A stretch of 36,671 nucleotides of DNA from a virus, in IMG/VR virus record IMGVR_UViG_3300038415_000180; one strand, written 5' to 3'. Position numbers and translations under genes: made by a program. This document shows positions 9,374 to 36,064 of the stretch, piece by piece. How positions within the stretch are numbered: the stretch's first letter is position 1; every line of letters starts with the position of its first letter. Under the pieces are notes generated by a model. It did not search any database, had not been told where the DNA came from, and saw only the letters and a list, made by a program, of their open reading frames with translations.

Positions 9374-10411
9374 TCAAATAACTGGCTTTCTCTTGTACCT
9401 AGTGGGTATACTTGCCCTATCTTCGTGGGTTTTAGGGGTCGGTTGAGTACCTTCTTGGTTACGATTTGGTCTACGGGTACGCTGATGACTAACGAATTGG
9501 ACTGGGTCGATACCTGAGGCAATTTGCCCCTGTACACCTCGTAGGAACTCTCGTTGCTGTATCTCACGGGGGGTTGGAGCCCTTGTCAAGACATTGGTCC
9601 ACGCCTCCCGCCAGGCTTGCCGACGCTCTGGGTCTTGTGGGATGTTAAGTTCACTGACTGGAAGTTCAGTGTTCATGCCGAAGTTGGCATCATCGAGCCT
9701 AGCCCCTAGCTGCTGGCGCCCCAGGATTTGGTCCCGACCTTCCATCACCCGTTGTTCCATCACCTGATTAAGGGCCTCCTCTAGGGTTTGAGTCGGCTGC
9801 GCCAGAAGCTCGGCCAGGGTCCGGTCGCTTAACACTCCCCGGGAGTTCAAGTCCCTGAGTGCTCTGTCCCTCTCCCTTTCACCCCCCTCACCCTCTACAG
9901 GGGGTAGGGCCTCCCTGATTCGATCAGCGAACTGCTCAGAGGTCTCAGCGACGAACTCTACCCGCTCCGTAGCCTGCTCCATAACCCTCCCCCCCTCCGC
10001 TCTCGCGGCTCCATACACACCTTCAATACACCTTGCGAAATCTGGGTCTGATACATGAAATTCGCTTGGGATTTGTTCATCAGGGTCCACATATCTTAGG
10101 TTATTGGCAGCGTCTCTCAGCTGTTGCACCAACTCATCTCGAACCCCTTCACCAACGTGATCCCCCATCCCCTCCCATGCAACACCCCAGGTTCGAACCG
10201 AACTGATCCCATCCTGTGGCAAAGTCCGAACCCGATAGAGGACCTGCATGCACTGGATCCGAAGTAAATCCCCGAAGTAGGCGGCCATCCTCTCAGGAGT
10301 GAAATGGTGGGATAATTCGTTGACAATCTGGGGTTCTAGACTGAAGGTCGCGTGACCGTTGTCCTGTCCAGAGTCATCGCGGACACGAACGAAAATGTCT
10401 ACTCGTGGCAT
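9374..10411 (-). CDS. Hypothetical Arg/Glu-rich protein, 345 aa, ending ...ASIPTRYKRKPVI*.
   Basis: Long ORF that carries the conserved C-terminal tag. Confidence 0.6.
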   Translation of the reverse strand: MPRVDIFVRVRDDSGQDNGHATFSLEPQIVNELSHHFTPERMAAYFGDLLRIQCMQVLYRVRTLPQDGISSVRTWGVAWEGMGDHVGEGVRDELVQQLRDAANNLRYVDPDEQIPSEFHVSDPDFARCIEGVYGAARAEGGRVMEQATERVEFVAETSEQFADRIREALPPVEGEGGERERDRALRDLNSRGVLSDRTLAELLAQPTQTLEEALNQVMEQRVMEGRDQILGRQQLGARLDDANFGMNTELPVSELNIPQDPERRQAWREAWTNVLTRAPTPREIQQREFLRGVQGQIASGIDPVQFVSHQRTRRPNRNQEGTQPTPKTHEDRASIPTRYKRKPVI

Positions 10412-10756: not shown

Positions 10757-10975
10757 ATGGAAGACCTGAAACCCAAACCTCGCTCACCACTCAGTGTCGA
10801 AAAGCTCCGAGAGCTTGAGGCCTACGTCACTGGCTTCATAGACGAACAGGGCTTCGGTAACGACGAGTGTATCTACCAGTCCGATTCTGCTTCACTTGAA
10901 GGCCCGACGCTCATTGACGGGTTGTGCAAGATCGTGGGCTACACTCAGTGGTTAGAGGAGTCACCCTCAAAGTGA
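10757..10975 (+). CDS. Small acidic hypothetical protein, 72 aa.
   Basis: ORF whose stop overlaps the GTG start of the next gene (GTGA). Confidence 0.4.
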   Translation: MEDLKPKPRSPLSVEKLRELEAYVTGFIDEQGFGNDECIYQSDSASLEGPTLIDGLCKIVGYTQWLEESPSK

Positions 10976-11412
10976 CTCAGATTCAAGCGTTTTGTGAGTT
11001 ATGCGCGATTCTCTTGGCAGCCGCTTGTGCATGTGCGCTCATCATAGAACTGGTTGAAAGCAGAGAATATCGGTACCCAACCTGGAAGGTTGGGTGTTGT
11101 GAAGCACCGATCGTTCTTTATATTATACTTTTATCTGCATTCCTACTGCCCCCGAAATTGTCTTGGCTACACGTACTCGGGGTAGTGTCATCCTATTTGG
11201 CTCTTGTACAAGCCTTCATGCTTCGGCTACGTATCTACAATACGAGGCGAGAGGCTCGGGAGCATGCTCGACTGTTGGCTGTTAGTGCTGAGGTAAGCAA
11301 AAAAGTTGAAGGTGTCAAGGTTAGGGTCATGGATCTGATGGAGAGAGAACGGCTCTTGAAGGCTATCAGACCTAAATCCAAGAGTCGTTACGAGCGCGAC
11401 CCAGTCATATGA
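10972..11412 (+). CDS. Membrane protein, about 146 aa, ending ...SKSRYERDPVI* (the shared tag). The likely start is GTG 10972. The ORF track extends it to 10924.
   Basis: There are 2-3 hydrophobic helices (AILLAAACACALIIELV and IVLYIILLSAFLLPP...VLGVVSSYLALVQAFML). It carries the conserved C-terminal motif. Confidence 0.5.
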   Translation: MTQIQAFCELCAILLAAACACALIIELVESREYRYPTWKVGCCEAPIVLYIILLSAFLLPPKLSWLHVLGVVSSYLALVQAFMLRLRIYNTRREAREHARLLAVSAEVSKKVEGVKVRVMDLMERERLLKAIRPKSKSRYERDPVI

Positions 11413-12025
11413 CCCACGGTCTCTCGTACCGAGTCAGGTATCGGACCTCGGAAGCGGTAAGCGGAAGCGGGAACAACTCTCGAATGTCATTCGCTTGAGT
11501 TCTAGGTTCTTGTGGCTGATAGATCACGGTATCATCAGTCGTTTCTTGATCTCTGAAGAACCTGAATCGTTCAGCCCCAGTGGCTGAATTCAATGCCATC
11601 CCACAACTACGGGCATCATTGCAACAGGCCCAGGCTATCGCCAAGTTAGCATGGCCCTTGGACTTGGTTGCGTTGTCCTCACGCATGATCCTGTTGAGAC
11701 CGATGGCTCTCGAAATAGCCGCTTCAGGGTCGTAGTCCTCGTTGCCTGCCACTAGGGAGGCCTTCTTCCTAGCTAGGTGGTCTAGGAGCTGTTCATCAAG
11801 ATCCCCATCCTCAGCTTGAACAGTCCTCAGTGCGGCCCTCATTGCCACCCAGTGCAGGTTCTTGGATTTGGGGTTCAAAGTGAGGAGTACCTTGAACATC
11901 ACATTGCCATCGTGGCAATGTTCCCAAGCTGTATCGAAGTCCCCAATCTTAGAGTTTTCCATCCACTCAAGGAACACCTTGGACACTTCAACCGCCCGAG
12001 CCACCTCTGGGGAAGGAAAAGTCAT
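11405..12025 (-). CDS. Hypothetical protein, 206 aa, ending ...LTRYERPWVI* (the shared tag).
   Basis: ORF with an ATGA overlap with the upstream gene. Its 3' end overlaps the convergent gene through the palindrome GTCATATGAC. Confidence 0.6.
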   Translation of the reverse strand: MTFPSPEVARAVEVSKVFLEWMENSKIGDFDTAWEHCHDGNVMFKVLLTLNPKSKNLHWVAMRAALRTVQAEDGDLDEQLLDHLARKKASLVAGNEDYDPEAAISRAIGLNRIMREDNATKSKGHANLAIAWACCNDARSCGMALNSATGAERFRFFRDQETTDDTVIYQPQEPRTQANDIRELFPLPLTASEVRYLTRYERPWVI

Positions 12026-25207: not shown

Positions 25208-28200
25208 CTAGTTGTTGACGTCGGCCAAAAACTGACGAGCGTTCTCATACACAAGCTTGGCTGTCTGGATCTCATTGCGGATAGCAATGTTGTTGAGGTG
25301 CAAGTCCACTGAATCAATCAGATCTTGGGGCTCGACCTGAACGAACGGGCGCATGATCTTGTGCATCTCATCCCGTTGCTTCTGGGTGAACTTCGACGGA
25401 TGGAACTTGTTCCCACCTTGGTTGAGCAACTCTAGGACGATGTCAGCAGCCTCCGGCTGAGTGTTCACGAAGTGACTCATCTTGATCCGCCAGACATGGT
25501 CGACGACCTTGCGCATGATGTCCCCAACGGCCCCGTCAAGGCGTGTGGAAGCCTCTGTGAGGACTCCGTTGCCCATTGACTCTGAACAGGGTAGGTAGGC
25601 CAGGAACTGCTTCAGAAGCCTGATACGGTCGTCCTGGCTTAGCTCGCCAACGATGATGACTTTGCTGAACCGACGGATGAGAGGCATCGAGATCCGCTCG
25701 GGATGGTTCGTGGCCCCCCAGAGAGCCAGGTGAGGGTAGCTCGTGATGCCATCCATCAAGACCTGGAACTCAGTGGCGAGGTTGGTCCCACCAAAGGCCG
25801 CATGCCCACGGTCCCCGTTGAGAATCGTATCGATCTCGTCGATGAGGAAAAACACTTGTTTCTTTGACTCCCGCTGAATCTTTAAGCCAGCTTCGAACAG
25901 ACGCTTTGGGTTCTTCTCACTTTCCCCTTTCCAACAAGTAAGGAAATCTGAGGCTTGCGCGAAGATTCCGATGCTCTGTCGATTCGAAGCCACACCTCGA
26001 AGGATCTCTGTTTTGCCCGAGTTATGAGTTACTGTGAAGTCACCCAGTAGATATCGTCCATCACCGTCAAGGGTAAATCCGTAATATCTCTCTTGAGGGA
26101 GTTCTCGTATAGTAAGCCCCGTACGAAGGACGTCCTTGATTTGCCTTCGTTCTCCAGCTTTCTTATGTGGAATACGCACTGGTATCAGACTCACATCTCC
26201 AGAGATCTTCACTCGGTAGTAAGTCCTCAATAACCCCTTGGTGTCTTTCTTTTGAAAAGTGGATTGATACGCAGCGAACCCTAAGCTGCAGGCAACAAAC
26301 CTCACATCATTAGCCAAGTGTTTTGACTTTGATTGAAAGTCAAAACACACATTCGACAGACTACCATCTGTGTCGATGAGTCCAGCTAGTAATTTTAGTC
26401 TATCCTTACGAGAGGCCATCTTGTAACAATTGGGTATGAACTTATTCCTTGTGGATGTCCCACCCAATCCTAAGTCACGTAGGATCAACATGATTGGATT
26501 TGGCTTATGACAGGTACCAGATAGCCAGTATCGAGTTACAGAAGAGGTTGGGTCAGGTGATGGGTTGACATGAAGCCCAAACTTCTTAGCTTGTTTGTAC
26601 ACTTCCCGGACTAACTCTGGGTCGCCAGTGGTGAGTGCTGGACAGGCTCTAATAGATCCGTCCCCAAGAAGTGCTCCTAAAAAATATGGGTCAAGCGGTA
26701 GTCTAGGTTTATGGGTAAACTCAACCCCAACTCGAAACAACTTGAATTCACGCTTCATATAAGCGGACCAGCCTAAGTAATCAGTAACCGCTACATCTCT
26801 AACCTCACCACTCAACTTCTTGTGTCCCATACGAACAAGTGTCAGAACATGACCCTTGTTCACAACCCAAGGTTCTCCTTTGGTTGGAAGGATCTCGACC
26901 ATATCTTCAGACCCACGATGTAGCTCCAGTACCCTACGGGGTTTGCTGTCAGGACCCATCAACAAGTCCCCAACCCTAATCCGCTCCACAGACTTCAAGG
27001 ACCCATCGAACATCAGGATCTTCTGTCCCTTACGATGACATCCCTGTGGCCCGACAAGAAGCACGTTGCTCTTGTCCGCCTTCTTCGATGGGGAGGTGGC
27101 CAGGAACACATCGAACCATTTGGCCCCATCGAGGATGTTGCTCATGAATTCGAGAACTTCCTTGAACCCAGATCCAATGACTTCGGACAGGTCCACCATA
27201 GGCTTGATGCCAGGAATGACTGTCAACTCCCCTGGGGCATCGCCGGTGAACGGGTTACCATTACCGATCTTGCAGACATAGAATGAGTTCTCTTCGAGGT
27301 TGTAGTCCCTCAGCTCTTGCTTGCGGCCGAGAATGTACTTGATGAGCGCTTCGACACTAGAGCGTTCCCTCAGCAACATCGCCACCATCTCAAGGGTCTT
27401 GTTTCTGAACTCCAACTCTTGGCGCTCCTCGATGGTGAGCAGCCCCGTCTTCTCCTTGTAAGTAACACTCTGTGGGTTCAGATCTTCGATAAAGCTCAAG
27501 GATTGTTTGAACTGGGAATCTTGATTCCTGTGTTCCTTTTGGTTAAACTTGGTGATGGTCTTGACCACCTCTGCAAAAGGGTGAGCTAATCTCTGGATCC
27601 GTGAAGACGAGTCCCACAGCCCATTCAGGCCATCAACGAGGAATCTGATGAACTTACTAGGGTCTGAGGTGAAGTCACCGAGCATTCCTGTCTGGAGTGA
27701 CTCGGCGAGGAGTACAGCCTTCCTCATCGTGTAAGCCGAGATCTCATCCGGCTTCTTGCCATCTTGGATCTCTCCATGGGAGTCTACATTCTCGTAAATC
27801 GAGATGGCCACATCCGTCGTGATGGGGTCGAAGTGAATCTTGATTCCCTCGACCGAGTGGCGATGGTTGAGAGCCTTGTAGTACCTGTCGAGGCAACCGG
27901 TGATGTGGCTGCAGATGTTGAGGATCTCCCTCTGACAGGAATTGGCTACCAGGAGATGGTTCGAGAACCTGTTTACAATAGGCCCAAACATCTGGTACTG
28001 AATCGAGAAGGTCTGCGCCTGCTCAAAAGTTCGAGGGTACCGCTCATCAGAAAGTAGTTCTATCTTCTCTGGTCGGAGGCCTCTGACAATCCCCAGCAGT
28101 TGTTGGAACCCGTTGTGCAAGTCACTGATTACTTCCAATACTATTCGAATGAAGCTGTTTCCGGCTGCATGCTTCAAGTCATCCAGCGCATCAGTGTCAG

Positions 28201-28495
28201 ACGTCATGTCCTCGAACGGGTTGCGCCTTCGGGTACTGTGTCTGACCTCCGATAGAATCGACTCAAAAGACTGACTCAAACTCGTGGTCTCGTCTTCTAG
28301 CTGACCGGTCAGGAAGGTGATCCTCTCGATCAACTCCTCGATGTCCTTCGCGAAGAGAGACTCCGCAGCATCGTTGACTACCTGAACCATCTGATAGAAC
28401 ATCATCGGATTCATCTCGACGACGTGGCTTTTACTCAAAGAGCGTTCTAGATCGTGTGAATCGAACATTTGAACGCTTGATACACCGGAACCCAA
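25208..28495 (-). CDS. Classic-clade AAA+ ATPase with a large N-terminal domain of unknown function (about 480 aa). It is interrupted in its P-loop by an intein, and the mature extein is about 755 aa.
   Basis: Once the intein is removed, the Walker A reads LLVGPQG-SGKTE. The Walker B is VFFLIDEID. The sensor-1 and second region of homology reads GATNHPERISMPLIRRFSKVIIV, with the RRF arrangement typical of Vps4, spastin and katanin ATPases. The listed start is a TTG, and an ATG lies at 28468. Confidence 0.85.
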   Translation of the reverse strand: MGSGVSSVQMFDSHDLERSLSKSHVVEMNPMMFYQMVQVVNDAAESLFAKDIEELIERITFLTGQLEDETTSLSQSFESILSEVRHSTRRRNPFEDMTSDTDALDDLKHAAGNSFIRIVLEVISDLHNGFQQLLGIVRGLRPEKIELLSDERYPRTFEQAQTFSIQYQMFGPIVNRFSNHLLVANSCQREILNICSHITGCLDRYYKALNHRHSVEGIKIHFDPITTDVAISIYENVDSHGEIQDGKKPDEISAYTMRKAVLLAESLQTGMLGDFTSDPSKFIRFLVDGLNGLWDSSSRIQRLAHPFAEVVKTITKFNQKEHRNQDSQFKQSLSFIEDLNPQSVTYKEKTGLLTIEERQELEFRNKTLEMVAMLLRERSSVEALIKYILGRKQELRDYNLEENSFYVCKIGNGNPFTGDAPGELTVIPGIKPMVDLSEVIGSGFKEVLEFMSNILDGAKWFDVFLATSPSKKADKSNVLLVGPQGCHRKGQKILMFDGSLKSVERIRVGDLLMGPDSKPRRVLELHRGSEDMVEILPTKGEPWVVNKGHVLTLVRMGHKKLSGEVRDVAVTDYLGWSAYMKREFKLFRVGVEFTHKPRLPLDPYFLGALLGDGSIRACPALTTGDPELVREVYKQAKKFGLHVNPSPDPTSSVTRYWLSGTCHKPNPIMLILRDLGLGGTSTRNKFIPNCYKMASRKDRLKLLAGLIDTDGSLSNVCFDFQSKSKHLANDVRFVACSLGFAAYQSTFQKKDTKGLLRTYYRVKISGDVSLIPVRIPHKKAGERRQIKDVLRTGLTIRELPQERYYGFTLDGDGRYLLGDFTVTHNSGKTEILRGVASNRQSIGIFAQASDFLTCWKGESEKNPKRLFEAGLKIQRESKKQVFFLIDEIDTILNGDRGHAAFGGTNLATEFQVLMDGITSYPHLALWGATNHPERISMPLIRRFSKVIIVGELSQDDRIRLLKQFLAYLPCSESMGNGVLTEASTRLDGAVGDIMRKVVDHVWRIKMSHFVNTQPEAADIVLELLNQGGNKFHPSKFTQKQRDEMHKIMRPFVQVEPQDLIDSVDLHLNNIAIRNEIQTAKLVYENARQFLADVNN
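26021..27040 (-). mobile_element. Intein of 340 aa with a LAGLIDADG homing-endonuclease domain, inserted between G and S of the Walker A motif.
   Basis: The N-terminal splice block is CHRKGQKILMFDG (Cys1). Block B is GHVLTLV. The two LAGLIDADG motifs are FLGALLGDGSI and LLAGLIDTDGSL. The C-terminal block is LGDFTVTHN, followed by Ser+1. Confidence 0.85.
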
Positions 28496-31919: not shown

Positions 31920-32504
31920 CTAGGGGTCGAGGCCAGCACTCGATGCCCTCGCCAACTGGTCCAATGCTTTATCCTTGATCTGACACACGCGAGCCTCAGT
32001 GAGACCTAGTATCTTGGCTATCTCACACAGGGAATAGTCCTCAAAGCAGTACTTCGAGAGAATGAATACCTCCTTTGGGGTGAGAAAGCTGAGAGACTCC
32101 AACACCTTTCGGAGTTCAATTCGTGCATGAACTAGCTCATCAAGAGGGCTAGTATCCGGGTCAGATAGGTTGGGATCAAGCAAATCGAACTTGGGCATCA
32201 CGCCACTCATCGTGCGCTTCTTGCGCCTGAGTGGCGTCGAGTTACGAATCTCATCTATGATGTGGCCCTTGATCCTACTACGAGCGTAGTGGCGAAACTC
32301 ATCGCGAGAGCCAGAATACTTGCGACAGGCATCCCATAAGCCGATCAAACCCCACTGATAAAGCTCCTCGTATTGTAGAAAAGGTGTACACTTTTTGGTG
32401 TAGTACCCAGCGATACTTGCCGCCATATTCATGTGGTTTTCGAACAACTCTTGAGTATCTCTAGGGGTGCTTAGTGCGGACACAAGTAGGTCCAACTCCT
32501 CCAC
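31920..32504 (-). CDS. Sigma-70-family RNA polymerase sigma factor, 194 aa, of the compact FliA/sigma-28 or SigF type.
   Basis: Region 2 reads QWGLIGLWDACRKY...FRHYARSRIKGHIIDEIRN (compare FliA GGIGLLNAVERYD...FTTYAVQRIRGAMLDELR). The region 4.2 HTH reads LTPKEVFILSKYCFEDYSLCEIAKILGLTEARVCQIKDKALDQLA. The listed start is a GTG. Confidence 0.8.
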   Translation of the reverse strand: MEELDLLVSALSTPRDTQELFENHMNMAASIAGYYTKKCTPFLQYEELYQWGLIGLWDACRKYSGSRDEFRHYARSRIKGHIIDEIRNSTPLRRKKRTMSGVMPKFDLLDPNLSDPDTSPLDELVHARIELRKVLESLSFLTPKEVFILSKYCFEDYSLCEIAKILGLTEARVCQIKDKALDQLARASSAGLDP

Positions 32505-32616: not shown

Positions 32617-32844
32617 TTGAATATGTCTTCAATCAAAGGTGAGCCTACGTTTGTTGAGGTGAGTTGGGTTGACATCACCGACCAGGATATAGCAAAAGTA
32701 TCAGAGGCATCAGGCCTTTCCCCTGAAAGGATCAAACAGTACTTGGAGAGCGAGGAGCAAGACAATAACGTTTTGCGATACTTCGCGCTAATTAGGGTCT
32801 ATCCGAGGGGTAAACTCTTCCAATCGTACAAGCAACCCGCTTAG
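32617..32844 (+). CDS. Small acidic hypothetical protein, 75 aa, divergent from the sigma-factor gene.
   Basis: ORF. Confidence 0.35.
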   Translation: MNMSSIKGEPTFVEVSWVDITDQDIAKVSEASGLSPERIKQYLESEEQDNNVLRYFALIRVYPRGKLFQSYKQPA

Positions 32845-32869
32845 GATCTGTTTTTGGGGTATTAGTGGC

Positions 32870-33400
32870 ATGGCAAGCAACCATTATCGTCGGGTGTATC
32901 TTGCCGGCCCGGATGTCTTCTTCCCTGATGTGGCCGAGCGATCAGCTAGGTTGAAGGATACCTGCCGTCATTATGGCTTCGAGGGAGTGTTCCCCCTCGA
33001 CTCTGGAGTCAAGATCACAAGCGCTCTTGCGCGCGAGGAGAACGGCTACCTCATCTACGAAGCCAATATCAGTCTCATTCGTTCCTGCCAGGCCATCCTG
33101 GCCAATGTAACCCCCTTTCGAGGCCCGTCGGTTGATGCCGGGACCGCTTTCGAGATTGGTTTCGGTCGCGCTCTCGGTCTCGAAGTTGTCGGGTACACAG
33201 CTATCCGCAACTTGTACAAGGAGCGGGTAACCCCGGATGGTCTGATGGTCGAAGACTTTGACATGGTCGACAACCTCATGATTCACTCTGCTATGTGTGG
33301 GGATATTTTCAGCACCCCACAAGAAGCACTTGACTACTTGGCCATCTTGTTTGACTCTGGCGAGCCCACAGCCCGCGTGAGCAGCATCAGACGAACATGA
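32870..33400 (+). CDS. Nucleoside 2-deoxyribosyltransferase / deoxynucleotide N-glycosidase (Rcl/DNPH1) superfamily protein, 176 aa.
   Basis: VYLAGPDVFFPD and SVDAGTAFEIGFGRALG match the family hallmarks (IYLAGP.F and D.GT.FE.GYA). Confidence 0.65.
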   Translation: MASNHYRRVYLAGPDVFFPDVAERSARLKDTCRHYGFEGVFPLDSGVKITSALAREENGYLIYEANISLIRSCQAILANVTPFRGPSVDAGTAFEIGFGRALGLEVVGYTAIRNLYKERVTPDGLMVEDFDMVDNLMIHSAMCGDIFSTPQEALDYLAILFDSGEPTARVSSIRRT

Positions 33401-33675
33401 GTTCTCGTCGCCTAGCAGTCAAAGTCATCCACGGTCAAGGAACAGAGCCAGAGCTCTTTGAGATCCCACTGAGTGGTCCTATTGGATCAAAGTTCAACCT
33501 GTTCGTGTTCCGCGGCGAGTCTACAATGAGTGAGAAGGAGATTCAAGACTTAGTAGAGATCTCTGGCAGACTGTCAGGTAATCCTTGCACAGCACTCATT
33601 CTGGGGGCAAATGACCAGTTCGAGGTGTATGAAGTCGAGATTCCAACCCGTTACGAACGTGACCCGGTGATCTGA
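33397..33675 (+). CDS. Hypothetical protein, 92 aa, ending ...EIPTRYERDPVI* (the shared tag).
   Basis: ORF with an ATGA overlap with the upstream gene. Confidence 0.55.
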   Translation: MSSRRLAVKVIHGQGTEPELFEIPLSGPIGSKFNLFVFRGESTMSEKEIQDLVEISGRLSGNPCTALILGANDQFEVYEVEIPTRYERDPVI

Positions 33676-34163
33676 TGCCTCGCTTATCCATCCGAATTGC
33701 AATGACGGACGATGAGAATCGTACCTTGGTCAGTCATGCTTGGGCCCCACTGAGTTACGAGGACTTTAACAACCCAGCTTTACTTGACCACTCTGACGGG
33801 TCGCTCGTAAACCAAACCGAGCGAGACTTGCTAGAGAGAATTCGGACTGCAATTGACCGGTCACTCCTAAGGTTTTCACGCGGGGAGCGAAGACGATTCG
33901 AGACAAGAGCGGCTAGACCAGATCTTACCGATATCAGTTTCTCTGAGAACTATGATATTGATGAGCCACGAGACGTACCCCTAGGTATAATCAGTGCTAT
34001 TCAAGCTAGTAGGGCTAATATAGCTGATCCTCAGTATATGCATATACTCACTGAAGCAGAGCGTATGGCCGTTATAGGTAAGGTCATCCCAAAAGAGGAC
34101 GAGCCTCTACTGAAACCAGAACCAAAGCGCCTGAATCGTTACCAGCGTAAGCCAGTCATCTGA
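33675..34163 (+). CDS. Hypothetical protein, 162 aa, ending ...KRLNRYQRKPVI* (the shared tag).
   Basis: ORF with a TGATG overlap with the upstream gene. Confidence 0.55.
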   Translation: MPRLSIRIAMTDDENRTLVSHAWAPLSYEDFNNPALLDHSDGSLVNQTERDLLERIRTAIDRSLLRFSRGERRRFETRAARPDLTDISFSENYDIDEPRDVPLGIISAIQASRANIADPQYMHILTEAERMAVIGKVIPKEDEPLLKPEPKRLNRYQRKPVI

Positions 34164-34179
34164 TGGTGTAACCGATTGG

Positions 34180-34821
34180 ATGCGCCAACGTTATGGAGAC
34201 TGGGTTCAGACTTTGACTGGGAATAGGTTCTATGTCCTGGACCCGGAACCCGAAGACATTAGAATCGAGGACATATCGGGCTCATTGGGGAAGATTTGCC
34301 GCTTCAATGGCCACCCGCGCGTCCCCTATTACGTGGGGCAACATTGTACTCTCGGCTCGTATGTCGTGGAGGAGCAAACCAAAAACCTGATCTTGGCCCT
34401 TGCCTTTCACCTCCATGACTCTGGTGAATCCTATCTTGGAGATATGACGCGTCCCCTGAAAGGAATGCCCGAACTCGAAGCTTACCGACTGGCTGAAAGT
34501 AAGCTGAGTCGGACCATCGAAAAAAGGTTTAGGCTCCCAGAGGGCATACTCGAAGACAAGGTCATCAAGGAAGTGGATAACCGGATGCTTTTCACGGAGA
34601 AGAGGGATCTGCTCGTGGCTCTTCAATGGGGGCATTCCGTTCAACCGTATGACTTCAAGATCAAGCCTTGGGGGTGGAGAAAGACCCAACGTAAGTATCT
34701 GGAACGATACCACGAGCTGTGCTTGAGACTCGATGGGTACCCGAAGATCGCTACTCAAGCTCTTCAACTCACTCGGTTACTACCCATCATAGGTACGGCT
34801 TTCTCGACAAGAGAGCAGTGA
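34180..34821 (+). CDS. HD-domain phosphohydrolase, YfbR-like 5'-deoxynucleotidase family, 213 aa.
   Basis: H...(GQHC) and HLHDSGESYLGDMTRP match the HD motifs of YfbR-type enzymes (LLHD.AEA.TGD.P.P). Confidence 0.65.
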   Translation: MRQRYGDWVQTLTGNRFYVLDPEPEDIRIEDISGSLGKICRFNGHPRVPYYVGQHCTLGSYVVEEQTKNLILALAFHLHDSGESYLGDMTRPLKGMPELEAYRLAESKLSRTIEKRFRLPEGILEDKVIKEVDNRMLFTEKRDLLVALQWGHSVQPYDFKIKPWGWRKTQRKYLERYHELCLRLDGYPKIATQALQLTRLLPIIGTAFSTREQ

Positions 34822-35496
34822 GTGACCCGGACTCCAACGTATGTCTACTACCACTTAGCCCAAATCGGGAATTGGGTTGAAGTGGTGCACGACCAGGTAA
34901 AGTCGCTCCAGGATTCTGGGTTATATGGATTCGCTGACAAGATATTCTTCGGAACACTAGGTGAAAACCGAGTATCGCTCCCTGACAAGTTCGAGATGCT
35001 CTTTCACAACCCCGACATCCGGCTGTACGAGATTCCTACCCTGAATGCCCTGAGAGAGCATGCGTTGAAAGAAGACTTCAATGTCCTGTACATGCACGCC
35101 AAGGGTGTGGCCTTCGAAGAAAAGGGTAACACTATCGAGATAGTGACCTATTGGCGTAAATATCTGGAGTACTTCTGTATAGGGAAGTGGGCCGAATGCT
35201 TGCAGGCTCTAGCGAACTTCGATGCCGCAGGGTGCGAGTTTTATGGGTCTGACGAAGTTGTCGACCCACATTTCAGTGGTAACTTTTGGTGGGCTAGGTC
35301 TAGTTACCTGAGAACCCTACCTAGGGTGGAAGACATCATAGTCTCAGAGGAACACTCTTTTCCCCCACGAATGAAAGCTGAGTTCTGGGTGGGTAGCAAC
35401 CATCAGATCCGAGTCAAGGAGCTGTTTCATCACGGTCTTGATGCTTACCGTTTTGAGATCAGACCCGAGATTTACACAGTTTGGAGAAGCAAATGA
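34822..35496 (+). CDS. Hypothetical protein, 224 aa.
   Basis: ORF that starts 1 nt after the stop of the upstream gene. Confidence 0.55.
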   Translation: MTRTPTYVYYHLAQIGNWVEVVHDQVKSLQDSGLYGFADKIFFGTLGENRVSLPDKFEMLFHNPDIRLYEIPTLNALREHALKEDFNVLYMHAKGVAFEEKGNTIEIVTYWRKYLEYFCIGKWAECLQALANFDAAGCEFYGSDEVVDPHFSGNFWWARSSYLRTLPRVEDIIVSEEHSFPPRMKAEFWVGSNHQIRVKELFHHGLDAYRFEIRPEIYTVWRSK

Positions 35497-35729
35497 AGAT
35501 CTCATTCTATGTTGCGTCAGAGCCTCTCATTACGCGTACGAGGGAGGTGATAGTCGTCCCTCGTGTCGGGGAGTATGTCACTTGGCATAAGGACACGGAG
35601 TCACTCAACTTCAGAATCCTGAAGGTGATCCATGTCATGGAAGATCGTGAAGACTACAAAGTCAAAGGACAGCCGCGCGAGTCCGTCTGTCTGGTTGTCG
35701 AAAAGGTGGACCGAAGAGAATTCCAGTAA
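35481..35729 (+). CDS. Hypothetical protein, 82 aa.
   Basis: ORF that overlaps the upstream gene by 16 nt. Confidence 0.45.
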   Translation: MEKQMKISFYVASEPLITRTREVIVVPRVGEYVTWHKDTESLNFRILKVIHVMEDREDYKVKGQPRESVCLVVEKVDRREFQ

Positions 35730-35734
35730 AGGTC

Positions 35735-36064
35735 CTAGCCCCCAACTCTGCCCAACCGACCAACTCTCGATGTCCTACCCAGAGCCACATTGATGAGATC
35801 AAGAAGCGTGTCGATGTGGAACGGTTTATAAAGAAAGTAGGGGAACCCCTCTACCTCTGGCCACCCGGAAATCACGATAAACCGGTCGCGCATATCCGGA
35901 TACTGGCCCGATATCCACTTGTACAGATCCTCGGCAGATTGAAGCCCCAGCTTCAGATCAGACACGACAAGGTCGATTAACTCCGTGGTGCTTAGTGAGG
36001 ACGACAACCTGAACCCACCTGTGGGGGACGCTGTCTTGAAGATGTGGAGAGAACTTCGGGACAC
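35735..36064 (-). CDS. Hypothetical protein, 109 aa.
   Basis: ORF that converges with the preceding + gene. Confidence 0.35.
   Translation of the reverse strand: MSRSSLHIFKTASPTGGFRLSSSLSTTELIDLVVSDLKLGLQSAEDLYKWISGQYPDMRDRFIVISGWPEVEGFPYFLYKPFHIDTLLDLINVALGRTSRVGRLGRVGG

Follow-up and report, generated by a model that had tools for sequence, protein, structure and literature searches.

The window analysed here is the whole 36,671-nucleotide stretch of the virus record IMGVR_UViG_3300038415_000180. Near its end lies a block of seven tightly packed plus-strand genes (32617-35729) which encodes a nucleoside deoxyribosyltransferase (NDT), two small proteins that share a C-terminal peptide tag (tag92 and tag162), an HD-superfamily phosphohydrolase (HD) and the products of three further open reading frames (ORFs). 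NDT and HD probably form the conserved core of this block and act on deoxynucleotides, while the tag, which is the block's most unusual feature, is general to the element of which the window is part and not specific to the block. The seven genes and the two that bound them are the following:

31920-32504, minus strand: sigma-70 family factor (Pfam Sigma70_r2 8e-10, Sigma70_r4 3e-10; phrog_351 1.6e-26)
32617-32844, plus strand: small conserved ORF, first of the unit, 73-75 amino acids (p75), probable ATG at 32623
32870-33400, plus strand: NDT family enzyme, 176 amino acids (PF05014 9.4e-31)
33397-33675, plus strand: tag92, 92 amino acids, ending in IPTRYERDPVI
33675-34163, plus strand: tag162, 162 amino acids, ending in LNRYQRKPVI
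34180-34821, plus strand: HD-superfamily phosphohydrolase, 213 amino acids (phrog_318 3.6e-49)
34822-35496, plus strand: DUF8361-type protein, 224 amino acids, GTG start (precomputed PF27674 in relatives L003 and L004)
35493-35729, plus strand: small conserved ORF, last of the unit, 78 amino acids from ATG 35493 (82 amino acids from TTG 35481)
35735-36064, minus strand: response-regulator-like gene, convergent, downstream boundary (PF00072 on orthologues, precomputed annotation)

An earlier note on this DNA had described a block of six genes, from NDT onwards, with two tag-bearing proteins inside it, and all six ORFs are indeed found on the plus strand with those coordinates and in that order. 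The seventh, a small gene which starts at 32617 or 32623 and ends at 32844, lies 25 nucleotides 5' of NDT and is syntenic in every relative, where its orthologues stand directly 5' of NDT with 62–100 % identity; Pfam and PHROG scans gave no family match. The successive junctions of the block measure +25, -4, -1, +16, 0 and -4 nucleotides. NDT and tag92 thus overlap by 4 nucleotides, tag92 and tag162 by a single one, and the stop codon of HD abuts the 224-amino acid ORF. That all the genes overlap or abut, as the note had it, holds for most junctions but not for HD, which is separated from tag162 by a gap of 16 nucleotides. For the last ORF the ATG at 35493, which creates an ATGA overlap and is the start called in related contigs, is better than the TTG at 35481; its orthologues are 72–100 % identical and neither Pfam nor PHROG gives a significant family match.

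A shared strand, short or overlapping junctions and a conserved order, features by which an operon can be recognised, are all found in the block. A scan of the block with consensus promoters and terminators gave no signal above chance, and the element encodes its own sigma factors; the block can thus be called an operon by the orientation and spacing of its genes and by the conservation of their order. The upstream boundary is set by the divergent sigma factor gene, syntenic in all relatives. Downstream, the window copy of the convergent response-regulator-like gene has no Pfam match at E≤0.1.

NDT matches PF05014 along all 117 positions of the profile, at 9.4e-31 and with 106.8 bits where the cut-off is 28.8. 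Its closest structures in the PDB are two purine deoxyribosyltransferases, the Trypanosoma brucei enzyme NDRT (2A0K, 1.5e-18) and that of Leishmania mexicana (6QAI, 1.1e-16). Identity is about 35–40 % to the solved enzymes and 41–55 % to the nearest cellular homologues. Members of the NDT superfamily share a Tyr-Asp/Asn-Glu catalytic triad; in the nucleoside transferases an Asp and an Asn hold the 5'-OH of the substrate, in the dNMP (deoxynucleoside monophosphate) hydrolases DNPH1/Rcl and DmtZ these are replaced by small uncharged residues, and a Pro typical of the transferases shields the active site from water (PMC12884076). The triad of the window enzyme is complete (Y10, N66 and E95, aligned to the residues of TbPDT), a DxGTAFExG motif is present, and both 5'-OH ligands are kept, namely D89, six residues before E95, and N135. 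All of these residues, together with P42, are invariant in an alignment of 24 NDT sequences. Judged by its residues, the protein is a genuine NDT-family enzyme of the transferase or nucleoside type and not of the nucleotide type. Of the label "NDT/Rcl-like" given to it before, the first half stands and the second does not, since the retention of D89 and N135 points to a nucleoside-type enzyme. An Rcl/DNPH1-type dNMP N-glycosidase was rejected on the same ground, and neither DNPH1 nor MilB structures are among the PDB matches at E≤0.01.

The NDTs of the element carry a C-terminal extension (LFDSGEPT.R; FDSGEPTAR in the window, 33360-33400, NDT residues 161-176) which is lacking in cellular homologues and is possibly a docking or oligomerisation segment. 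In catalogued phages, NDT occurs in only 3 of about 50,700 records, and a scan of GTDB with an NDT profile returned only cellular homologues of at most 55 % identity.

The product of 34180-34821 is, by its alignments, a metal-dependent phosphohydrolase of the HD superfamily. In an alignment with Atu1052 (PDB 2GZ4, 1e-12) its metal-binding H55, H79-D80 and D133 have their counterparts, it matches phrog_318 at 3.6e-49, and homologues of 33–38 % identity are found in 299 phage records. It had been described as a YfbR-like HD 5'-deoxynucleotidase; the HD phosphohydrolase is confirmed, but the likeness to YfbR is not, as there is no Pfam match at E≤0.1 and Atu1052 is the sole PDB match at E≤1, with no YfbR structure. 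There is no NCBIfam match, and no match to DatZ is detectable with phmmer at E≤1. Identity with the Dmp of phage T5 was rejected: the two proteins compare at E=3.6 in BLASTP, and Dmp is a member of phrog_415, the window HD of phrog_318. We know of no characterised member of the phrog_318 family. In three relatives the HD gene is interrupted, after about residue 50 and just 5' of the first metal-binding His, by an insert of about 265 amino acids that looks like a mini-intein (L013 11297-12721, L105 91-1521, L131 18-1448). In L112 (4378-5017) the HD alignment falls into two pieces overlapping at residues 33-38, which indicates a frameshift or an assembly error.

The association of NDT with HD is conserved well beyond the window. 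The order sigma factor (minus strand), p75, NDT, tag92, tag162, HD is found in at least seven sub-lineages of the window's clade, with identities of 76–100 % for NDT, 81–100 % for HD, 67–98 % for tag92 and 42–98 % for tag162. Throughout this clade (L001-L008, L112, L131, L135) NDT and HD lie at most 1.5 kb apart; L006 has one extra gene of 211 amino acids 3' of NDT. In a clade of about 60 % identity (L013, L014) the two enzymes are still neighbours, and a protein of 244-248 amino acids with an HExxH motif takes the place of tag92 and tag162. This intervening gene is untagged, and the tagged proteins of this clade are located elsewhere, after the CCA enzyme. The HExxH protein (motif LIHEVTHALD; L013 10542-11288, L014 10667-11401 and, truncated, L015 10559-10861) has no family match.

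In comparison, HD was not found within 6 kb on either side of 80 cellular NDT genes (41–55 % identity) from Alpha- and Gammaproteobacteria, filamentous cyanobacteria, Bathyarchaeia and others. The possibility that these are generic housekeeping salvage enzymes shared with the host core genome is thus not borne out. From the gene order in relatives, NDT–HD is the deeper conserved association, and the tagged pair a clade-specific, stable occupant of the space between them. Linkage down to about 60 % identity, together with its absence around cellular NDTs, makes a two-step conversion from deoxynucleotide to deoxynucleoside, followed by base exchange, plausible. Other genes of nucleotide metabolism are found at some distance: a thymidine kinase (PF00265) in L001, L004 and L005, some 6 kb downstream, and an OMP decarboxylase 2-4 kb upstream of NDT in L013-L015.

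The DUF8361 gene is a less constant member of the block, being present in only some sister contigs (it is absent from L001, L002, L005 and L006). At E≤1e-3 its family comprises 3553 representative clusters. Relatives with several domains have GT2, GT1, GT17, GT61, RgpF (rhamnan synthesis), Methyltransf_24, FkbM or TPR as fusion partners, and in L009 DUF8361 is fused to a methyltransferase (Methyltransf_24). The fusion partners therefore mark it as a domain of glycan-synthesis type, and the gene is, by this likeness, an accessory gene of that type.

The two proteins encoded between NDT and HD resemble no known family. For tag92 there is no Pfam, PHROG or NCBIfam match. A single-sequence AlphaFold2 model (predicted local distance difference test score, pLDDT, 70; predicted template modelling score 0.59) shows a beta3-alpha-beta2 arrangement for which Foldseek finds no fold match in the PDB (best E=0.3), and the protein is predicted to be a small alpha/beta domain. 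Its orthologues, 67–98 % identical, retain the tag. Only 7 homologues of tag162 exist among 5.8 billion proteins. Its invariant residues are concentrated in two stretches, positions 1-74 and the final 11 residues, in line with a layout of an N-terminal beta-hairpin and long helix, a divergent disordered linker and then the tag (the AlphaFold2 model is poor, pLDDT 59). Orthologues at 41–84 % identity keep the tag although the linker diverges. An extra gene of 211-236 amino acids adjoins tag92 in L006 (9097-9732) and L009 (9016-9726); its C-terminus, PKTRYTRVLEGQVI or PKTRYNRNIECHERTES, looks like a decayed or divergent tag.

The tag itself recurs in the window. The pattern RY.R.[PW]V[IL] has 8 copies in the six-frame translation, every one directly before a stop codon, whereas 200 shuffles give an expectation of 0.01. 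The Arg, Tyr, Pro, Val and Ile codons vary synonymously among the copies. It is thus the peptide that is under selection, and the idea of a repeated DNA element or a recombination site was rejected for this reason. A single paralogous family was rejected as well: in an all-versus-all BLASTP comparison, similarity among the tagged proteins is limited to the last 10-25 residues, true orthologues excepted. A loose N-terminal likeness of three of them (MPR, hydrophobic strand, DD) is below significance. Besides tag92 and tag162, the tagged genes of the window are:

6878-7288, plus strand: tagged protein, TRYERKWVI end, Cys-rich
9374-10411, minus strand: tagged protein, TRYKRKPVI end, 345 amino acids
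10924-11412, plus strand: tagged membrane protein, SRYERDPVI end, three hydrophobic segments, 3' end 8 nucleotides into the next gene
11405-12025, minus strand: tagged protein, TRYERPWVI end, 206 amino acids
12022-12432, minus strand: tagged protein, NRYHRKPVL end, 136 amino acids
18552-18716, plus strand: tagged ORF remnant, SRYNRKPVI end

The last of these has no start codon and has in-frame stops where a 70-amino acid orthologue (L129) reads on, so that it is probably a pseudogene or a remnant of 36 amino acids. The convergent genes 10924-11412 (plus) and 11405-12025 (minus) overlap by 8 nucleotides at 11405-11412; both end in GTCATATGA, and their Val-Ile-stop codons thereby share the palindrome GTCATATGAC on opposite strands.

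A degenerate DNA pattern of the tag matched 38 metagenomic stretches, about 28 of which carry genuine in-frame tags. This added 65 further tagged ORFs, often in tandem runs. The logo drawn from 72 distinct tails reads [R/I]-x-[S/T/N]-R-Y-E-R-x-[P/W]-V-I-COOH after a linker rich in Pro, Arg, Val and Glu, with positions -6, -3 and -1 biased by the seed pattern. The tag profile carries about 28 bits, too few for significance among 1.8 billion sequences. In the deeper clade the variant TRFERE[D/E]VI is found. Some of the tagged proteins are Cys-rich and some have an N-terminal or multiple transmembrane helices. A Pfam scan of tagged proteins of the family left 40 of 42 without a domain, the two others being Tad2-like (Thoeris anti-defence 2, PF11195, best E 1.4e-8). 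From their DUF2829-like sequence these are presumably L098 1336-1701 and L126 6131-6388, the Pfam output leaving the members unnamed. A few tagged proteins have weak PHROG matches to virion structural, tail or head-decoration families. A literature search on the motif strings found no paper containing them, and the tag appears to be a C-terminal short linear motif not described before.

In the sampled regions of the element family more than 10 % of the proteins carry the tag. On the 443-kb contig Ga0265338_10000010 (L135, L129, L124, L125, L110, L121), all nine exact seed-pattern tags are located at 24-152 kb and the remaining 290 kb has none. Tagged genes thus fill a large region and not a nucleotide-metabolism locus, which suggests that about one third of this genome is tag-rich. 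The earlier note had proposed that the tag system is tied to nucleotide or DNA metabolism and might deliver enzymes to a compartment. Neither idea is supported. The enzymes NDT and HD are untagged, none of the 42 tagged proteins is a recognisable enzyme, tags occur on unrelated proteins (soluble, Cys-rich and membrane-anchored ones) over about 130 kb of the 443-kb contig, and the deeper clade has an untagged gene between the two enzymes. Since the enzymes lack the tag, and its bearers are unrelated and widespread, the tag is not tied to nucleotide metabolism; as far as sequences can tell, it is a genome-wide portable motif. The proteins tag92 and tag162 are non-enzyme members of a large heterogeneous tagged set which share only the C-terminal motif.

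A conserved, portable terminal peptide on unrelated proteins, as is found here, is one of the marks of a cargo-loading or targeting system. By analogy with such systems, the tag most likely serves to dock its bearers on a single shared receptor, which either the element or the host would encode. Candidates suggested by context and co-occurrence are a major vault protein (MVP) homologue, the virion, a Cdc48-like ATPase and a host hub. Two of these are encoded in the window:

1457-4093, plus strand: full-length MVP homologue, 878 amino acids (PF11978 3e-9), candidate tag partner by context
25208-28495, minus strand: AAA ATPase of the Cdc48/p97/Vps4 type with a Hint and LAGLIDADG intein, candidate tag partner by context

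The MVP homologue matches rat and human MVP in the PDB at 6.5e-14 over residues 440-780 (340 residues). Its orthologues on the 225-, 435- and 443-kb contigs are 64–82 % identical, and its nearest cellular relatives, in Candidatus Uhrbacteria, are 41–45 % identical and stand in a housekeeping context. Of the 12 tagged genes in the window and the flank upstream of it, 8 are at most 10 kb away from the gene for MVP. However, there are no tags at the Uhrbacteria MVP loci, and a second, unrelated MVP-bearing phage-like lineage (L137) does not share the tag. An MVP–tag link is thus not general, and MVP was rejected as an obligatory tag partner. In L137 a further Tad2-like gene is found, close to the one for MVP. 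The upstream flank of the window (L010 1-9900) encodes a GmrSD_N protein, an NAD kinase and an HD_4 protein (RelA/SpoT-type hydrolase), as well as three consecutive tagged proteins with RY.R.WVI ends just 5' of a 333-amino acid protein and MVP. As to the ATPase, its intein-free orthologue in L009 (745 amino acids) matches Cdc48/p97 at 1e-28.

Exact copies and relatives of the window's proteins are encoded on near-identical metagenomic contigs as long as 96 kb and on contigs of 225, 435 and 443 kb, and more distant relatives on contigs of 473 and 512 kb. The window belongs to a family of such contigs (225-512 kb), putatively giant uncultivated phage-like elements of bacteria. Nearly all neighbouring genes are without a Pfam domain. 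The domains that do occur are those of sigma factors, the CCA-adding enzyme, thymidine kinase, OMP decarboxylase, NAD kinase, HD_4 hydrolase and GmrSD_N, and also PLD, RNA ligase, HNH, transposases and inteins. When 24.7 kb were compared with 50,697 phage records by megablast, nothing matched, and no tRNAs were found.

Taken together, these observations lead us to favour, as on balance probable, a reading in which the NDT–HD pair is the conserved core of a seven-gene block that looks co-transcribed and reworks deoxynucleotides, the tagged neighbours being docked onto a common receptor. HD would strip the phosphate(s) from deoxynucleotides to yield 2'-deoxynucleosides; HD enzymes acting on dNMPs and on deoxynucleoside triphosphates (dNTPs) are both known, and either could be the substrate. 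NDT, with Glu95 as nucleophile and its catalytic and 5'-OH-binding residues intact, would then move the deoxyribosyl group to another base or to water. A kinase, for which the thymidine kinase of the sister contigs is a candidate, could re-phosphorylate the product. The net effect would be to re-allocate host-derived deoxyribose among bases and to reshape the dNTP pool for replication of the element. The position of tag92 and tag162 between the two enzymes would be a clade-specific gene order, and any coupling of an adaptor type to the enzymes is putative.

Several points weigh against this reading. The relative L009 has tag92, tag162 and HD but no NDT within 10 kb, and L015 has NDT but no HD nearby, so that the pair is separable. 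Simple descent can also explain a conserved order in related genomes. The stable position of tag92 and tag162 in at least seven sub-lineages leaves room for what may be a real functional tie to the enzymes. Since T5 Dmp is unrelated to the window HD, the name "dNMP phosphatase" attached to phrog_318 is a propagated annotation. Finally, where the phage nature of the element is concerned, neither capsid, portal nor convincing terminase is encoded in the window, and scans of IMG/VR and GTDB representatives with HD peptide patterns yielded no confirmed relative.

A role in counter-defence is an unlikely alternative, suggested by analogy. HD and NDT would degrade or rebalance nucleotides on which host immunity draws or which it depletes (as with dNTP-depleting enzymes, nucleotide-sensing systems and chain-terminating nucleotides), and the tagged neighbours would be further anti-defence factors. 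Phage enzymes of the dNTP pool are indeed sensed or targeted by defence systems, as illustrated by T5 Dmp and NrdAB escape mutants against Clover (PMC12265719). The two Tad2-like tagged proteins and the nearby genes for GmrSD_N and for the ppGpp-hydrolase-like HD_4 protein point in the same direction. However, NDT, HD, tag92 and tag162 have no homology to a characterised anti-defence protein in Pfam, PHROG and NCBIfam, PADLOC and anti-defence libraries not having been searched, and analogy is all that the argument offers.

Alternatively, tag92 and tag162 could bind NDT and HD and carry them via the tag to a receptor (a vault-like shell, the virion or a membrane), so that remodelling would be localised. 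The translationally coupled order NDT-tag92-tag162-HD, which persists in at least seven sub-lineages while tag162 falls to 42 % identity, speaks for such a targeted complex, and the GEPT extension of the element NDTs could be its docking site. But the deeper clade has NDT, extension included, and HD in the absence of tag92 and tag162, and L009 has the reverse situation of tag92-tag162-HD with no NDT; we consider a complex of this kind distinctly unlikely. The more specific possibility that the tag docks onto an MVP nanocompartment, to which tag92 and tag162 would bring the untagged enzymes as adaptors, is improbable. If true, it would amount to a virus-encoded, vault-based site of deoxynucleoside remodelling, and a cargo code would be defined for a prokaryotic or viral vault for the first time.

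Replacement or hypermodification of DNA bases seems to us similarly improbable. NDT would install a non-canonical base, HD would remove the competing canonical nucleotide, and the glycosyltransferase-like DUF8361, together with a methyltransferase in some relatives, would decorate the product. There is a real precedent in DmtZ, an NDT-family enzyme of Z-genome phages (PMC12884076). NDT is rare in catalogued phages, and relatives have the DUF8361 domain joined to glycosyl- and methyltransferases, L009 to Methyltransf_24. However, we found no evidence for such a pathway in this element. No PurZ, DpoZ, hydroxymethylase, DpdA or other hallmark is encoded in the window or within 10 kb on either side in the relatives, which together covers about 15–25 % of each genome. 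NDT keeps D89 and N135, unlike the 5'-phosphate-binding DmtZ and DNPH1. Only some of the sister contigs have DUF8361, and its fusion partners RgpF, GT2 and TPR are typical of polysaccharide synthesis. Of the two roles that the earlier note had offered for the enzymes, nucleotide-pool remodelling thus remains a reasonable reading, given a conserved and family-specific NDT–HD pair, but DNA hypermodification does not, no modification enzyme having been found. That there is no functional unit at all, NDT and HD being independent neighbours by descent in a gene-dense element, is very improbable, for although L009 and L015 each have one enzyme with the other not nearby, the accessory content of the block varies and the scan for regulatory signals detected none, NDT and HD stay linked even where the genes between them have been exchanged from clade to clade, there are overlaps of start and stop codons, and the two chemistries fit as consecutive steps.

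The NDT–HD pair is, on the reading favoured here, a new variant of phage-type nucleotide-pool remodelling. Its presence on a giant element suggests salvage of deoxyribose by base exchange, unlike the known ways in which phages recycle or discard host dNMPs, and the two enzymes may serve as biocatalysts. The reader of the tag, once found, would show in what way such giant elements organise dozens of proteins that otherwise defy annotation, and could give the prokaryotic and viral vault homologues their first function.

Among known systems, the closest counterparts of the window NDT are the trypanosomatid and bacterial enzymes (2A0K, 6QAI), with which it shares the full-length PF05014 domain, the Tyr-Asn-Glu triad, the 5'-OH ligands, Pro42 and the DxGTAFExG motif. 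It differs from them by its GEPT extension, its location on a giant mobile element and its HD neighbour. DmtZ is an NDT-family dAMP hydrolase that transfers deoxyribose-5-phosphate to 2-aminoadenine and works beside dATP/dGTP hydrolases (PMC12884076). Like the window NDT, it belongs to the NDT superfamily and has its gene next to those of nucleotide hydrolases on a phage-like element, and it provides a precedent for viral base swapping. In contrast, DmtZ is of the DNPH1/Rcl-like type, lacks the Asp and Asn that contact the 5'-OH and binds dNMPs, whereas the window enzyme keeps both residues; the PurZ/DpoZ context of DmtZ is not seen in the window. The window HD resembles the phage HD hydrolases of phrog_318 and Atu1052 in its profile match and its aligned H…HD…D residues. 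It is unlike YfbR, having no Pfam or PDB match to it, and unlike T5 Dmp, with which it has no homology. Phages T4 and T7 recycle host dNMPs, a route from which the one proposed for NDT and HD differs. T5 offers another contrast, as its Dmp degrades host dNMPs for excretion (bioRxiv 10.64898/2026.04.02.716235).

Homologues of MVP have been reported in bacteria and phages (bioRxiv 10.1101/872010; 10.1101/2023.11.10.566534). The 878-amino acid protein of the element matches MVP in sequence and length. We know of no cargo and no tag of prokaryotic or viral MVPs. The cargo-loading peptides of encapsulins, the capsid-targeting tail of the HK97 protease and, among the tethering peptides of AAA+ adaptors, the XB motif of SspB and the ClpX signal of MuA are all C-terminal peptides used for targeting or tethering. 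The tag resembles these in being a short peptide at the extreme C-terminus that follows a flexible linker, is portable and is carried by clustered genes. It differs from them in its sequence and in its occurrence on dozens of proteins, membrane-anchored ones included, and the shell candidate nearby is the vault homologue and not a protein of the HK97 fold.

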